DNA of 64,000 nucleotides from the NCBI RefSeq assembly GCF_024223415.1, contig NZ_CP100500.1; one strand, 5' to 3'. The stretch is from Escherichia coli. Lineage in GTDB: Bacteria > Pseudomonadota > Gammaproteobacteria > Enterobacterales > Enterobacteriaceae. The position numbers and the translations under genes were made by a program. The stretch's first letter is position 1. Every line of letters begins with the position of its first letter. The notes under the pieces were generated by a model. That model saw only the letters and a program-made list of their open reading frames with translations. It did not search any database and was not told the DNA's origin. This document shows positions 1 to 21,515 of this stretch, piece by piece.

Positions 1-205
1 TTTTTGGCGGTTACCATCGCCTCACCTTCCTGGTTCACACAAAGCAACCCTGATTTTCCATGAAAACTTCAGGGTTGAGCCAAAAGCACAAAGACAGTAG
101 ATTAACCAAGGGTACCCGCCACCTGCCAACAGGAACGGTATCCAGTACGTATTAATGACTGACAATTCACATTGCTGTTTTGCCCGCCAGAAGGTGGGCA
201 TTTTT
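1..205 (+). repeat. Tandem repeat unit 1 (~200 bp): 8-bp-stem hairpin near 46-78, then intrinsic terminator; sRNA-like, unrecognised; array continues left of window
   Basis: Window opens inside a T-run matching unit ends; about 80% identity to 203-410 over the core; GC hairpin plus T7 at 3' end. Confidence 0.5.
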
Positions 206-207
206 TT
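181..207 (+). terminator. Rho-independent terminator of repeat unit 1
   Basis: gcccgcc-agaa-ggtgggc hairpin followed by T7. Confidence 0.6.
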
Positions 208-410
208 GGCAGTTATCATGGACGCACCTTCATGACACATATTAAGCAGACCTGATTTTTCCATGAAAAATTCATGGTTGAGACAAAAGCACAAAAACAG
301 TAGATTAACCACGGGTGCCTGCCACCTGACAACAGGAAGGGGTGTCCATTATCCATGATATACAAACGAAAAGTCTTGTCTTTTGCCCGCCGTTGCGCGG
401 GCTTTTTTTT
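203..410 (+). repeat. Tandem repeat unit 2, paralogous to unit 1; 3' third diverged
   Basis: Aligns with 1-205 (shared tttttggc..ccacctt..cctgatttt(t)ccatgaaaa..ggttgag.caaaagcacaaa.acagtagattaacca.gggt.cc.gccacctg.caacaggaa); ends in GC hairpin plus T9. Confidence 0.5.
383..410 (+). terminator. Rho-independent terminator of repeat unit 2
   Basis: gcccgc-cgtt-gcgggc perfect hairpin followed by T9. Confidence 0.65.
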
Positions 411-440
411 TGCCACCCTCACCAGTGAGGGTACCATCAT

Positions 441-662
441 TCAGAGGCGCGTAAGCCACCCGGCGTTAACATCCTGCCCGTCAACCCTGACCGCAGAGTC
501 TGAACGGCAGGCACCGGAAGCAGTACCAAAAACACCTCTGACAAGTTCCGCCACCTTCCCGATATCATCAGGCGCCACATTCCTCACCTCGACAGTGATC
601 CGTGGCGTACCATCATCGTTAACAAGCGTGGCTTTAAGGCTGGTACGACGGGCAAATAACAT
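441..662 (-). CDS. Hypothetical 73-aa protein (MLFARRTSLKATLVNDDGTPRITVEVRNVAPDDIGK...), function unknown
   Basis: Internal ATG of ORF-track ORF 441..728(-); GGAGG-containing SD (cgaagGGAGGgggtgttgATG) about 8 nt upstream; no family recognised; lies antisense to a + strand terminator-bounded segment. Confidence 0.35.
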   Translation of the reverse strand: MLFARRTSLKATLVNDDGTPRITVEVRNVAPDDIGKVAELVRGVFGTASGACRSDSAVRVDGQDVNAGWLTRL

Positions 663-721
663 CAACACCCCCTCCCTTCGGTTCGTTGCACTGGCAGCAC
701 GATACCACCAGGAAAAAGAAA

Positions 722-755
722 AGCCCACAACGTCAGGATTGCGGGCTTTTTTTCT
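722..755 (+). terminator. Rho-independent terminator closing the segment upstream of the copA promoter
   Basis: gcccacaa-N8-ttgcgggc hairpin (one mismatch) followed by T7. Confidence 0.55.
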
Positions 756-820
756 TCAAAAATGGACACTACGTGGACACTGATTAAATAATCCTTTCTT
801 AATCAGACTGTTAAAATGCT

Positions 821-889: not shown

Positions 890-3394
890 ATGTCACAAAC
901 TATCGACCTGACCCTGGACGGCCTGTCCTGCGGTCACTGCGTTAAACGCGTGAAAGAAAGTCTCGAACAGCGCCCGGATGTGGAACAAGCGGATGTGTCT
1001 ATCACTGAAGCGCACGTTACCGGGACTGCCAGTGCAGAACAGCTGATCGAAACCATCAAACAAGCGGGTTATGACGCATCTGTAAGCCACCCAAAGGCTA
1101 AACCGCTGGCGGAGTCATCAATCCCGTCGGAAGCACTGACAGCGGTTTCTGAGGCGCTTCCGGCAGCGACCGCCGATGACGATGACAGCCAGCAGTTGCT
1201 GCTGAGCGGCATGAGCTGCGCCAGCTGTGTCACCCGCGTACAAAATGCGTTGCAAAGCGTACCGGGCGTCACTCAGGCACGGGTAAACCTGGCGGAGCGT
1301 ACTGCGCTGGTGATGGGCAGTGCCTCCCCACAAGATTTAGTGCAGGCGGTGGAAAAAGCGGGCTACGGTGCGGAAGCGATTGAAGATGACGCGAAACGCC
1401 GCGAGCGCCAGCAAGAAACCGCCGTCGCTACGATGAAGCGCTTCCGCTGGCAGGCAATTGTTGCATTGGCTGTGGGTATCCCGGTAATGGTCTGGGGGAT
1501 GATCGGCGATAACATGATGGTCACCGCTGACAACCGCAGCCTGTGGTTGGTTATCGGCCTGATAACCCTGGCAGTGATGGTTTTCGCCGGCGGCCATTTT
1601 TACCGCAGTGCATGGAAAAGCCTGCTGAACGGTGCAGCGACGATGGATACGCTGGTGGCGCTGGGTACTGGCGTGGCGTGGCTCTATTCGATGAGCGTCA
1701 ACCTGTGGCCGCAATGGTTCCCGATGGAAGCGCGACATCTTTATTACGAAGCCAGCGCGATGATTATCGGTCTGATTAATCTCGGCCATATGCTGGAAGC
1801 GCGCGCACGTCAGCGTTCTTCAAAGGCGCTGGAGAAATTACTCGATTTAACTCCGCCGACGGCGCGCCTGGTTACTGACGAAGGTGAAAAAAGCGTGCCG
1901 CTGGCGGAAGTTCAGCCAGGCATGCTACTGCGCCTGACGACGGGCGACCGCGTGCCAGTAGATGGCGAGATTACCCAGGGCGAAGCATGGCTGGATGAAG
2001 CGATGCTGACGGGCGAACCTATTCCGCAGCAAAAAGGCGAAGGCGATAGCGTCCATGCCGGTACAGTGGTACAGGACGGTAGCGTGCTGTTTCGCGCCAG
2101 TGCGGTTGGTAGCCATACCACGCTATCAAGGATCATTCGTATGGTGCGCCAGGCCCAGAGCAGTAAGCCAGAAATCGGTCAGCTGGCGGATAAAATCTCA
2201 GCCGTATTTGTGCCGGTAGTAGTGGTTATTGCGCTTGTCAGTGCGGCAATCTGGTATTTCTTTGGTCCGGCACCGCAGATTGTCTATACCCTGGTGATTG
2301 CCACCACGGTGCTGATTATTGCCTGCCCGTGTGCGCTGGGGCTGGCGACGCCGATGTCGATTATTTCCGGCGTCGGGCGGGCGGCTGAGTTTGGCGTGCT
2401 GGTGCGGGACGCCGACGCGCTGCAACGCGCCAGTACACTCGATACCGTCGTGTTCGATAAAACCGGGACGCTGACCGAAGGGAAGCCGCAGGTTGTCGCA
2501 GTGAAAACATTTGCTGATTTTGACGAAGCGCAGGCGCTGCGTCTGGCGGCGGCACTGGAACAAGGTTCCAGCCATCCGCTGGCACGGGCGATCCTCGATA
2601 AAGCAAGCGATATGCAGCTGCCGCAGGTCAACGGTTTCCGCACATTGCGCGGGCTGGGCGTGAGCGGTGAAGCTGAAGGTCATGCGTTATTGCTGGGCAA
2701 TCAGGCGCTGTTAAATGACCAGCAAGTTGATACTAAAGCGATTGAAGCAGATATTTCAGCTCAGGCATCGCAAGGGGCAACGCCTGTGCTGCTGGCGGTT
2801 GACGGGAAAGCGGTAGCCCTGCTGGCTGTACGCGATCCGTTGCGTAGTGATAGCGTGGCGGCGCTGCAACGTCTGCATAAAGCGGGATATCGTCTGGTGA
2901 TGTTGACCGGGGATAACCCAACCACCGCCAATGCGATCGCCAAAGAAGCAGGGATTGATGAGGTGATCGCCGGGGTGCTGCCGGACGGTAAAGCCGAAGC
3001 GATTAAACGCCTGCAAAGTGAAGGACGTCAGGTGGCAATGGTGGGCGACGGCATTAACGACGCGCCAGCGCTGGCTCAGGCGGATGTCGGCATTGCGATG
3101 GGTGGCGGCAGTGATGTTGCTATTGAAACCGCGGCGATTACCCTGATGCGCCATAGCCTGATGGGTGTTGCGGATGCGCTCGCTATTTCCCGCGCAACGC
3201 TGCGCAACATGAAGCAGAACCTGCTCGGCGCGTTTATCTACAACAGTATCGGTATTCCGGTTGCCGCCGGTATTTTGTGGCCGTTTACTGGAACACTGCT
3301 TAACCCGGTGGTTGCCGGAGCGGCAATGGCGCTCTCGTCGATTACCGTAGTGAGTAACGCCAACCGGTTGCTGCGGTTTAAACCGAAGGAATAA
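890..3394 (+). CDS. copA: Cu(I)-exporting P-type ATPase CopA, 834 aa
   Basis: ORF track; two N-terminal GxxCxxC metal-binding domains, CPC, DKTGT and GDGIND motifs. Confidence 0.97.
1090..1096 (+). other. Programmed -1 ribosomal frameshift site in copA (slippery C CCA AAG) giving the short CopA(Z) chaperone
   Basis: cac cca aag gct at codons 67-70; the -1 frame reads aaa ggc taa and stops at once; reported for E. coli copA. Confidence 0.6.
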
Positions 3395-3399
3395 GTACG

Positions 3400-3524
<125 letters not shown>

Positions 3525-3592
3525 TGAACTGCACCCCAAATGTTGGACATAATCTGACATCTGAAGGTGCAGTTTATGAAACATTCATTTGA

Positions 3593-4096
3593 AGTAAAAC
3601 TGCCGCTGTAAATCATTACCTGGCCGGTCATGCAGGCATCATTTCTACGGCAAAACTCTTTCAACTTTCTCACACCAGCCTCTCACACTGGATTAATCTT
3701 TTTCTTCTTCACGGTCCTCAGGCACTGGATTGCAGACACAAGCGTAGCTATTCTCCTGAAGATAAACTTTGCGTGGTTCTTTATGCTCTCGGGCATTCTG
3801 AGTCTCTACCCCGGGTAGCTGCCCGGTTTAACATTCCCAGCCACAACATGGTTAAAAACTGGATAAAAGGCTACCGCAAATCTGGTAATGAGGCCTTTAT
3901 CAGGCGCAGGAAGGAGAAAAGCATGACCCGTTCTGATGATACCCATGAAAACGAGGCAAACATGACGCCGGAAGAGATGAAGAATGAGCTGCGTTATCTT
4001 CGCGCAGAAAATGCATATCTGAAAGCCATGCAGGAGCATCTCCTGGAAAAAAAGCGCCAGGAGCTGGAGAAAAAACGAAAGTCATCCAGAGCCTGA
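3593..4096 (+). CDS. IS3-family transposase OrfA (HTH); frame open from 3593 but no in-frame ATG, ORF track starts it at GTG 3773; likely 5' frameshifted
   Basis: Translation ..VNHYLAGHAGIISTAKLFQLSHTSLSHWINLF..RVAARFNIPSHNMVKNWIKGYRKSGNEAF.. plus leucine-zipper-like C-terminus; upstream ATG near 3576 is in another frame and stops after 11 codons. Confidence 0.6.
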   Translation, partial: SKTAAVNHYLAGHAGIISTAKLFQLSHTSLSHWINLFLLHGPQALDCRHKRSYSPEDKLCVVLYALGHSESLPRVAARFNIPSHNMVKNWIKGYRKSGNEAFIRRRKEKSMTRSDDTHENEANMTPEEMKNELRYLRAENAYLKAMQEHLLEKKRQELEKKRKSSRA

Positions 4097-4200
4097 AGTG
4101 CGGACACTGCCAGTCTGACCTGTTAAAGGCTGCAGGGCTGGCCAGAAGCACGCTGTACTACCAGCTGTCACTGCAGAAGGCTAAGGACAAGTATGCTGAT

Positions 4201-4955
<755 letters not shown>

Positions 4956-5122
4956 GTAAGCGTCGCATCAGGCAATGGTACTCGGATGCCGGATGCGGCG
5001 TGAACGCCTTATCCGGCCTACGGTTCAGGCACAGGTTTGTAGGCCTGATAAGACGCGTAAGCGTCGCATCAGGCAATGGTGCTCGGATGCCGGATGCGGC
5101 GTGAACGCCTTATCCGGCCTAC
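4956..5122. repeat. REP/BIME cluster, right part, immediately downstream of ybaQ
   Basis: Repeated gccggatgcggcgtgaacgccttatccggcctac and gcctgataagacgcgtaagcgtcgcatcaggc units. Confidence 0.8.
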
Positions 5123-5144
5123 GAGATGAAGCGATGTTTTGGCC

Positions 5145-5486
5145 TTACGCGACCTTTTTTGCACGCTCTTCACGGCGTGCCAAATATTCAGCCACTGTTT
5201 CAATCCGTCCCAATTCTTCCTGGGTACGCATGTTGTTTTCAACTTCCCAAAGATCAACTGCCGCCTGGAGGTTTAGCCAAAAATCGACTGTGGTATCAAA
5301 AACTTTCGCCAGACGGAATGCCATTTCAGTGGTGAGTTTACGATTATTATTGATCAGTGTACTGACGCTATTACGATGAACATGCAGCAACTCTGCTAAC
5401 TCATTGATTTTCAAAGAGAGCGGTTCCAGATATTCATAGAGAAGAATATCTCCGGGTGTCGTCGGTTTTCTTGTTGCCTGTTTCAT
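5145..5486 (-). CDS. ybaQ: HTH-type transcriptional regulator YbaQ, 113 aa
   Basis: ORF track, start set at MKQATRKPTT from recalled protein. Confidence 0.9.
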   Translation of the reverse strand: MKQATRKPTTPGDILLYEYLEPLSLKINELAELLHVHRNSVSTLINNNRKLTTEMAFRLAKVFDTTVDFWLNLQAAVDLWEVENNMRTQEELGRIETVAEYLARREERAKKVA

Positions 5487-5623
5487 AGTTTTTAACTGTT
5501 GCTTCCCTGTGAATAGCGATACAAGAACATACTGAATCATACAAACACATTAAACAAGTCCCCAACTCCATTTGCGCCATCCCTCCCCGCGCGCTAGCAT
5601 GATATTTCACAAAGGGAGGTCGT

Positions 5624-19577: not shown

Positions 19578-21515
19578 TCAAATGGGGCGGATACTTTCTT
19601 CATCCAGCTCCGCATCGAAAAACCGACGCAGGGTCTGAATATTATTATCCGCAATAATGGACTCGCGCGCCTGCGCAAGTTTTTCTTCGTATATCGCCTG
19701 ACGCCACTCCAGCGGCGTACGCACCGCGGGATTATCATCTTCAACGATAGTCAGTTCAACCGTTGAACCTTTTAACATGCTCAACGCTTCAGCCAGTTTT
19801 TGCTGTGCACCGCGGTTGTTCAAATGCCGCTGAGAGGAGCGCAAATGCAGACATACTGCGTTGTCGCTCTCCTCTTTCCAGGCATTTAACGCCACCTGTT
19901 CGACCAGTTTTGGTAGCGAAAGTTGGCTCACCTGTGCCGCCCACGGGTCGCGCTCAATGGCTTCTGCCGCTAGCTTCGCCGCCAGTTCCGGCGTTTTTTC
20001 ATGTTCCAGCGCTTTTTTCAGCGCCTTCGGCGTGGCGACCACTTCTTTTTGCTGTATCACCGGAGTGGTCGCCTTCCAGCGATACGCTTCTTTTTTGGCT
20101 GGCGCTTTTTCCAGCGCCGATGGCACCGGACGCGCCTGAACGCGATCGGTGACCGAAGCCAGTCTTTCCAGCGCAGCGTTATTCACCGGCCGCGCGCGGG
20201 TAGCGGCTGCCGGTTCACTCTTTTTTGCTTTGGTTGCTCCCTGCACGCGCTGCAACTGCTGGCGCGCCGCCAGCACCTGGCTGGTGGTTTCCGGGAGCGG
20301 TACAGTCGGTGCCTGCTGCGGCGCTGATTGCGGTTGCGGTTGCGGCGGCACCTGGGTTGGCGTCATTACTGCCGTTGGCGCGACGGGTGCAAAGGACTGG
20401 CGTGGCACTTCTGGCTCAGGCAGCGGCATACGCGGATGGAACGCCAGCGCGCGCAGCAGCGTCATCTCAACGCCCATGCGGCGGTCCGGCGCATACGGTA
20501 ATTCTTTGCGACCAATCAACAGCGTCTGATAGTAAAGCTGAATATCCGTCGGCGGTATGGTGCGCGCCAGTTCACGCATCCGCAGCTCGATGGCGGCCAT
20601 GTCGTTGCCAAGTGCAGCAGGCGAAAGTTGTACCATCGCAATACGATGCAACAGGCCGAGCATTTCCACCAGCAACGCTTCCCACTCGATACCACGGGCA
20701 GCGGCTTCATTAATCAGCGCCATTACGCGCTCGCCGTTGGCCTCGACCATCGCTTCAACCAGCGACAGCGCCTGATCGTCGTCAAGCGTACCCAGCATCG
20801 CACTGACCGCCTGGGTTGAAACCTGGCCGTCACCGCTGGCAATCGCCTGGTCGGTCAGACTTAAGGCATCTCGCAGGCTGCCTTCAGCGGCGCGCGCCAG
20901 CAATTGCAGCGCCCGCGGCTCGTGAGCGATATGTTCTTCATTGAGGATGTGCTCAAGTTGATGGCGAATTTGCTCGACATCCAGCGCCTTGAGATGAAAT
21001 TGCAAACAGCGCGACAAAATCGTCACCGGCAATTTCTGTGGATCGGTCGTCGCCAGCAGAAACTTAACGTGCTCCGGCGGCTCTTCAAGAGTTTTTAACA
21101 GTGCGTTAAAGCTGTGGCGCGACAGCATATGCACTTCGTCGATGAGATAAACTTTGAAACGACCACGCGCCGGAGCGTACTGGACGTTATCCAGCAGGTC
21201 GCGAGTGTCTTCAACTTTGGTGCGCGAGGCGGCGTCGATTTCAATCAGATCGACAAAGCGCCCCTGCTCGATTTCACGACAGTTATCGCACACGCCGCAC
21301 GGCGTCGCGGTAATGCCGGTTTCGCAGTTTAGCCCCTTCGCCAGCAGTCGGGCGATAGAGGTTTTTCCGACGCCACGGGTACCGGAAAAAAGATAAGCAT
21401 GATGAATACGCCCTAACGACAAGCCGTTCGCCAGTGCGGTCAGCACATGTTCCTGGCCGACGACGTCAGCAAAGGTTTGTGGGCGCCATTTTCGGGCTAA
21501 GACCTGATAACTCAT
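19578..21515 (-). CDS. dnaX: DNA polymerase III tau/gamma subunit DnaX, 645 aa in this sequence
   Basis: ORF track; Walker A GTRGVGKT; internal recoding site. Confidence 0.96.
   Translation of the reverse strand: MSYQVLARKWRPQTFADVVGQEHVLTALANGLSLGRIHHAYLFSGTRGVGKTSIARLLAKGLNCETGITATPCGVCDNCREIEQGRFVDLIEIDAASRTKVEDTRDLLDNVQYAPARGRFKVYLIDEVHMLSRHSFNALLKTLEEPPEHVKFLLATTDPQKLPVTILSRCLQFHLKALDVEQIRHQLEHILNEEHIAHEPRALQLLARAAEGSLRDALSLTDQAIASGDGQVSTQAVSAMLGTLDDDQALSLVEAMVEANGERVMALINEAAARGIEWEALLVEMLGLLHRIAMVQLSPAALGNDMAAIELRMRELARTIPPTDIQLYYQTLLIGRKELPYAPDRRMGVEMTLLRALAFHPRMPLPEPEVPRQSFAPVAPTAVMTPTQVPPQPQPQSAPQQAPTVPLPETTSQVLAARQQLQRVQGATKAKKSEPAAATRARPVNNAALERLASVTDRVQARPVPSALEKAPAKKEAYRWKATTPVIQQKEVVATPKALKKALEHEKTPELAAKLAAEAIERDPWAAQVSQLSLPKLVEQVALNAWKEESDNAVCLHLRSSQRHLNNRGAQQKLAEALSMLKGSTVELTIVEDDNPAVRTPLEWRQAIYEEKLAQARESIIADNNIQTLRRFFDAELDEESIRPI
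20220..20226 (-). other. dnaX programmed -1 frameshift site (A AAA AAG) with downstream stem-loop, producing gamma
   Basis: Plus strand cttttttgc is the reverse complement of gcAAAAAAGag; GC-rich stem-loop at about 20170-20215. Confidence 0.8.

Follow-up and report, generated by a model that had tools for sequence, protein, structure and literature searches.

A probably recently inactivated IS1397 copy, lacking one T in orfA, in a REP/PU palindrome between copA and ybaQ of Escherichia coli

An insertion sequence lying downstream of copA on an Escherichia coli chromosome has an orfA gene whose start codon and body are in different reading frames. Has this copy lost its transposase, do elements of this kind begin translation at some other codon, or is the disruption an error in the assembly? 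We addressed these questions in a window (the whole stretch of chromosomal DNA that was analysed) of 64,000 nt, in which copA occupies positions 890-3394 and the genes from copA to cyoC follow one another as they do in strains NCTC10444 and KV7. A preliminary description, made from the sequence and a mechanical list of its open reading frames (ORFs), had proposed that a 1-nt indel separates the true orfA start from the rest of the gene.

The element is a copy of IS1397 (IS3 family, IS150 group) that spans window positions 3525-4955 on the plus strand; its length is 1431 bp, while intact copies have 1432 bp. With RefSeq/PGAP-annotated copies as the measure (1431 of 1432 bp), it aligns over its full length, at 99.9% identity and with one gap, to sequences that many complete E. 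coli genomes carry under the annotation ‘IS3-like element IS1397 family transposase’. By the ISfinder convention, elements with more than about 95% DNA identity are isoforms of one IS. The organization is that of a two-ORF element of the IS3 family, with orfA followed by an overlapping orfB in the -1 frame and a slippery heptamer (Table 1). When the frame of orfA is repaired, OrfAB scores 389 bits against the NCBIfam model NF033516 (IS3 family transposase; cut-off 160). Pfam detects HTH_21, rve, rve_2 and rve_3 in the orfB frame, that is, the DDE/RNase H-like integrase core of the IS3 family, and the product of positions 4201-4920 in this frame is identical at 239 of 240 residues to Q47310_ECOLX, named ‘OrfB protein’. 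The frameshift junction …LLEKK|(A/P)PGAGEKTKV… is present in a 449-aa annotated IS1397 transposase (P0018), and the RefSeq remark on intact copies reads ‘programmed frameshift’. Intact OrfA has 173 aa, begins with MKHSFEVKLAAVNHY… and contains two HTH_28 stretches, the first at residues 8-57.

The ends of the element, TGAACTG… at 3525 and …CAGTTCA at 4955, have the 5′-TG and CA-3′ termini of the IS3 family. The terminal inverted repeats are imperfect (21 of 25 positions agree between the left end and the reverse complement of the right end); being imperfect they were missed by a seed-based inverted-repeat search, and direct alignment of the ends was used instead. Consensus scans for promoters and terminators in the IS region gave nothing above the shuffled expectation.

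The insertion lies between copA and ybaQ, in the GTAA loop of a REP/PU palindrome belonging to a BIME. A close relative, NCTC9112, has the empty site: there the sequence reads gacgcGTAAgcgtc, the palindrome is uninterrupted and GTAA occurs once. The single GTAA of the empty site implies that insertion of the IS duplicated the 4-bp loop, and a duplication of this length fits the 3-4 bp that are usual in the IS3 family. Matches to the REP-derived Rfam family naRNA4 in both IS flanks confirm the BIME context. The comparison of occupied and empty sites thus places the element where IS1397 is expected, in the central loop of an E. coli REP (palindromic unit) within a BIME; REP-specific insertion has been established experimentally for IS1397 (PMC1525189).

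The BIME itself differs between the two sites. To the right of the IS there is an extra unit of ~101 bp (PU-linker-PU; window 4960-5060, compared with 5061-5123 and 3424-3524) that is absent from the empty site of NCTC9112; along the lineage with the insertion, the BIME has gained one unit of the repeat. Immediately 3′ of the IS, the BIME also contains a full-length match to naRNA4 (CssrE, a REP325-type nucleoid-associated RNA) at window 5042-5119, which exceeds the gathering score of 59.5 bits on both strands (87.1 and 64.3 bits).

Table 1. Positions in the window of the IS1397 copy's coding features, ends and target site
Feature	Positions	Strand	Basis or remark
Left half of the split REP/PU palindrome (ggcctgataagacgc + gtaa)	3506..3524	.	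empty-site comparison
Left target-site duplication GTAA (REP/PU loop)	3521..3524	.	window sequence and empty site
Left terminal inverted repeat TGAACTGCACCCCAAATGTTGGACA	3525..3549	+	single occurrence in window
Shine-Dalgarno-like GAAGGTG, 6 nt before the canonical ATG of orfA	3563..3569	+	sequence
orfA 5′ remnant: canonical ATG, 11 codons (MKHSFEVKLPL), premature TAA 3609-3611	3576..3611	+	translation
orfA body, -1 frame relative to the ATG, without a start codon of its own, ending at TGA 4094-4096	3593..4096	+	frame reading
1-nt deletion: CTTG to CTG, one T lost from codon 10 (CTT, Leu)	3601..3602	+	alignment to intact copies
GTG at residue 67 of intact OrfA, preceded by no ATG, GTG or TTG in the body frame	3773..3775	+	mechanical ORF list
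A AAA AAG slippery heptamer, programmed -1 frameshift to OrfAB	4048..4054	+	frame reading
orfB frame (HTH_21 and rve integrase/DDE core)	4051..4923	+	intact, TAA stop 4921-4923
Right terminal inverted repeat …TGTCCAGGTTTTGGGGTTCAGTTCA	4931..4955	+	direct alignment of ends
Right target-site duplication GTAA	4956..4959	.	window sequence and empty site
Right half of the split REP/PU palindrome (gtaa + gcgtcgcatcaggc…)	4956..4975	.	empty-site comparison

The proposed separation of start and body was borne out. Translation from the ATG at 3576 yields MKHSFEVKLPL and, as had been read, ends after 11 codons (the stop is TAA 3609-3611), and the frame of the orfA body (…SKTAAVNHYLAGHAGIISTAKLFQL…; …AAVNHYLAGHAGIISTAKLFQLSHTSL…) is open from 3593, after a TGA at 3590-3592; the mechanical ORF list agrees that this frame has no ATG, GTG or TTG before the GTG at 3773. 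To locate the lesion, we used as intact references a copy from the yjjV-yjjW locus (L001, strain AR_0085) and the NCTC10444 and KV7 orthologues at copA. The 1-nt indel had been placed around 3595-3610, and in the alignment it is a single missing T at 3601/3602: intact copies read GTAAAACTTGCCGCT and the window reads GTAAAACTGCCGCT or, over a longer stretch, GAAGTAAAACTTGCCGCTGTAAAT (E V K L A A V N) and GAAGTAAAACTGCCGCTGTAAAT, respectively. The preliminary description had called for alignment with other genomic copies of the element; this comparison, which took in one other locus and the copA site in seven assemblies, finds exactly one missing T in the element and nothing else that differs. 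That T is the sole difference from the NCTC10444 and KV7 orthologues within 3525-4955, and 3′ of the deletion the orfA body is identical to intact OrfA (P0001). As the lesion is a deterministic difference between sequences and no statistical signal, there is no chance expectation to weigh it against.

A reference element sharing the sequence of the window, or having a documented non-canonical start, can be ruled out: the intact copies have the T, and their RefSeq coding sequences start at the same ATG as that of window 3576.

What the body frame could still encode is limited. The ORF that starts with GTG at 3773 (3773..4096) specifies 107 aa corresponding to OrfA residues 67-173. Pfam finds in this product the second HTH and not the first, in agreement with the earlier claim that a start at this codon removes the first HTH. 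We also considered alternative starts in the body frame, including CTG, ATT, ATC and ATA, and none combines a Shine-Dalgarno sequence with a position that keeps the first HTH.

How widespread is the allele? Alignment of window positions 819-64000 to NCTC10444 and to KV7 gave 63,183 columns with 14 substitutions and one gap, the gap being this T. The same IS insertion at the copA junction was found in five of 5,426 complete genomes, all five of which keep the T. It is kept as well in two further assemblies with the IS at the copA site, CP101732.1 (retrieved through exact CopA matches, with 24 of 12,704 index blocks covered) and CAUZHL010000001.1 (retrieved through an exact match to a 73-aa prophage-end protein). 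The latter has the same order of prophage, copA and IS1397 as the window, from which it is 3 SNPs apart. Thus, copA-site orthologues were found in seven assemblies and the T is present in 7/7. A 61-nt query centred on the deletion had no exact match at 4,874 places in 1,399 complete-genome records (1,395 genomes), and the full-length IS of the window had no 100% match among complete genomes.

The exact 107-aa product of the GTG 3773 ORF is present on five short Logan/ENA contigs, and the four that were compared have other orfA lesions and CTTGCC. In the contig from Logan ERR13959691 (L006) we read CCTCGGC where the window has CCTCAGGC; the other three (L007, L008 and L009) keep CTTGCC. These four contigs come from read-archive or metagenome assemblies, and with different lesions in orfA they arrive at the same 107-aa GTG-initiated ORF. 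Such recurrent, independent frameshifts in orfA show that IS1397 commonly decays by this route. Decay of the element is also apparent at a larger scale: IS1397 matches occur in 3,496 genomes, of which only 1,707 have one that covers at least 80% of the element; in the others, about half of the total, all matches are fragments.

Given that the allele is a singleton, absent from the 1,399 complete-genome records and from the seven copA-site assemblies, one has to ask whether the T is missing from the chromosome or just from its assembly. The missing T might be an error of sequencing, assembly or polishing, with the real chromosome carrying an intact 1432-bp IS1397 at this place. The rest of the element is base-for-base identical to its orthologues, with no accompanying decay to corroborate the age of the lesion, and multi-copy repeats like this one are the places where polishing and the closing of gaps can least be relied on. 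Still, alignment of 63 kb to each of two independent relatives shows no other indel. One gap along with 14 substitutions in 63,183 bp indicates that the assembly is not indel-prone and that the lineage is old enough to have acquired real mutations; a generally indel-prone assembly is ruled out by this single gap with respect to each of the two relatives, and the same interval in NCTC10444 has no pseudogene flags. The usual contexts of long-read errors are long homopolymers, GATC and CCWGG. Here the lost base belongs to a run of two Ts, which is no long homopolymer, and it overlaps neither methylation motif. Had reads been mis-mapped from intact copies, they would more likely have put the T back than taken it out. 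In E. coli, mutation-accumulation studies put the rate of indels at roughly a tenth of that of substitutions; with 14 substitutions to each relative, about one genuine indel is to be expected, and an indel is least counter-selected in a gene of a selfish element. On balance, we consider an error unlikely, at something like one chance in a few, and the deletion likely to be biological, a judgement drawn from sequence comparison.

We therefore regard the element as, in all probability, a recently inactivated copy of the known IS1397, which lost one T in the lineage of this genome and with it the transposase. In such a scenario one T of the TT in orfA codon 10 (CTT) would have been lost, and ribosomes starting at ATG 3576 would read 11 codons before terminating at TAA 3609-3611. 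The remainder of orfA, now in the -1 frame, would go untranslated and A AAA AAG (4048-4054) would never be reached in the orfA frame. Since the premature stop would keep ribosomes from the heptamer in this frame, neither OrfA (a regulatory DNA-binding protein with two HTH domains) nor OrfAB (HTH, HTH_21 and rve/DDE) is expected to be made from the window copy. An autonomous copy has an uninterrupted orfA; in this one the gene is broken by TAA after 11 codons and offers no alternative start with a Shine-Dalgarno sequence. The coding defect supports the earlier statement that the copy cannot make full-length OrfA or OrfAB, and the term ‘non-autonomous’ follows from this defect.

Could the copy still be functional at a low level, either through a shorter but working protein begun at GTG 3773 or at a rare start codon, or through a -1 slip that restores the frame? 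As for the first route, GTG 3773 is without a Shine-Dalgarno sequence (the duplex energy with the anti-Shine-Dalgarno sequence is -1.0 kcal/mol, vs -3.9 kcal/mol at the canonical start), and its product is without the N-terminal HTH_28. In IS3-family transposases such as those of IS911 and IS3 the N-terminal HTH binds the terminal inverted repeats; since this domain is missing, a GTG-initiated OrfAB should be inactive. As for the second route, the codons in the ATG frame run GTA AAA CTG, with an A preceding AAA, and tRNA-Lys on AAA 3597-3599 could conceivably re-pair in the -1 frame on A3596-A3598, entering the orfA body frame before the TAA. The slip product would be MKHSFEVK-T-AAVNHY…, i.e. 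OrfA L10T, and E. coli tRNA-Lys is the slip-prone tRNA of IS1397's own A AAA AAG site. However, no stimulatory element is visible near A-AAA, and we know of none for a slip at 3596-3599; slips of a single tRNA without stimulation typically occur at well below 1%, and OrfAB would need two successive frameshifts. We thus find residual function by either route very improbable. We likewise give hardly any credence to a real deletion combined with rare rescue by the A-AAA slip (a two-frameshift, extra-tight attenuation), or to an immobilised copy kept as a fixed part of the copA-ybaQ region.

A recently inactivated copy, our preferred reading, would be unable to move itself, and OrfAB made by other IS1397 copies in the same cell could in principle mobilise it, since the lesion has left the inverted repeats and orfB undamaged. 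In close relatives each genome has 8-11 IS1397-matching places, which makes a source of transposase in trans plausible, and a donor probably exists in this genome too. IS3-family transposases prefer to act in cis. From what was observed directly (the deletion, its uniqueness, the truncated frame, the domain content, the intact ends and the target duplication) we infer both the loss of transposition and mobilisability in trans, and the window copy is best described as cis-dead and potentially mobilisable in trans.

Several features of the neighbourhood deserve mention in their own right. Upstream of copA, window positions 1-818 have no match in the closest relatives, NCTC10444 and KV7, which can be aligned only from 819. 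Matches to this segment come from a few E. coli, most of them from chickens (GF60, Ch1, CS5L and CM2), where the matching stretch is the end of a P2-like prophage beside copA, with genes for ogr/Delta, gpD, tail sheath and tail tube. In the window, copA thus lies between a prophage junction and IS1397, as it does in CAUZHL010000001.1. Positions 1-413 consist of two tandem units of ~203 bp (1-210 and 203-413; segments 75-89% identical), each of which ends in a terminator-like GC-rich hairpin followed by a T-run on the plus strand. The units gave no Rfam match at E<=0.01, and their predicted folds are not clearly better than those of shuffled sequences (z = -1.7 and -0.1). They may be prophage-end repeats that are sRNA-like or related to the attachment site.

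On the other side of the IS, ybaQ (window 5145-5540, minus strand) encodes a HigA-family antitoxin of 113 aa according to the annotation of relatives, vs 131 aa in the mechanical ORF list. In the window it is an apparent orphan; a gene for a HigB-like toxin adjoins it in some other strains (L024). NCTC10444 aligns to this region of the window without gaps, and in that strain ybaP starts 138 bp past ybaQ, the interval containing no toxin gene. Farther along, at about 20181-20245 on the minus strand, lies a classic cellular example of programmed -1 frameshifting, the site in dnaX, which is annotated as ‘DnaX frameshifting element’ in relatives; its coordinates were converted from L002 by the alignment offset.

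With regard to annotation, the locus should be described as one frameshifted IS1397 transposase pseudogene and not as separate genes for an ‘HTH protein’ and a ‘transposase OrfB’. The window copy should also not be counted as active when the transposition potential of the genome is estimated. If real, the private deletion provides a clean marker that tells this clone from others sharing the insertion, and it is an example of how an IS that has only recently inserted may decay through single-base indels; in the case of a sequencing error, the assembly needs correction at this base. IS1397 itself, its target in the PU loop of a BIME, the expression of OrfA and OrfB with a programmed -1 frameshift and decay by single-base frameshifts are known already, and only this private allele is new.

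Comparison with known systems shows where the window copy stands. With intact IS1397 it has in common the ATG, the A AAA AAG site, the inverted repeats and the insertion into a REP/PU loop with a 4-bp duplication; it differs in lacking one T at orfA codon 10 and thus in length (1431 vs 1432 bp). Elements of the IS150 and IS911 type within the IS3 family are alike in specifying OrfA, OrfB and, via a -1 frameshift at A AAA AAG, OrfAB, with an N-terminal HTH and a C-terminal rve/DDE core. They are, however, other elements by sequence, and the window copy has an extra, unprogrammed frameshift upstream of the programmed one. ISKpn1, an IS3-family element of Klebsiella pneumoniae, likewise targets REP/PU sequences (PMC1525189); it comes from another species and targets another type of PU. 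Alike in their mode of decay are the degenerate IS1397 copies found elsewhere, together with remnants of the element that are annotated as ‘helix-turn-helix domain-containing protein’. These have decayed in the same way as the window copy but through different lesions, its T deletion being present in no other sequence examined.
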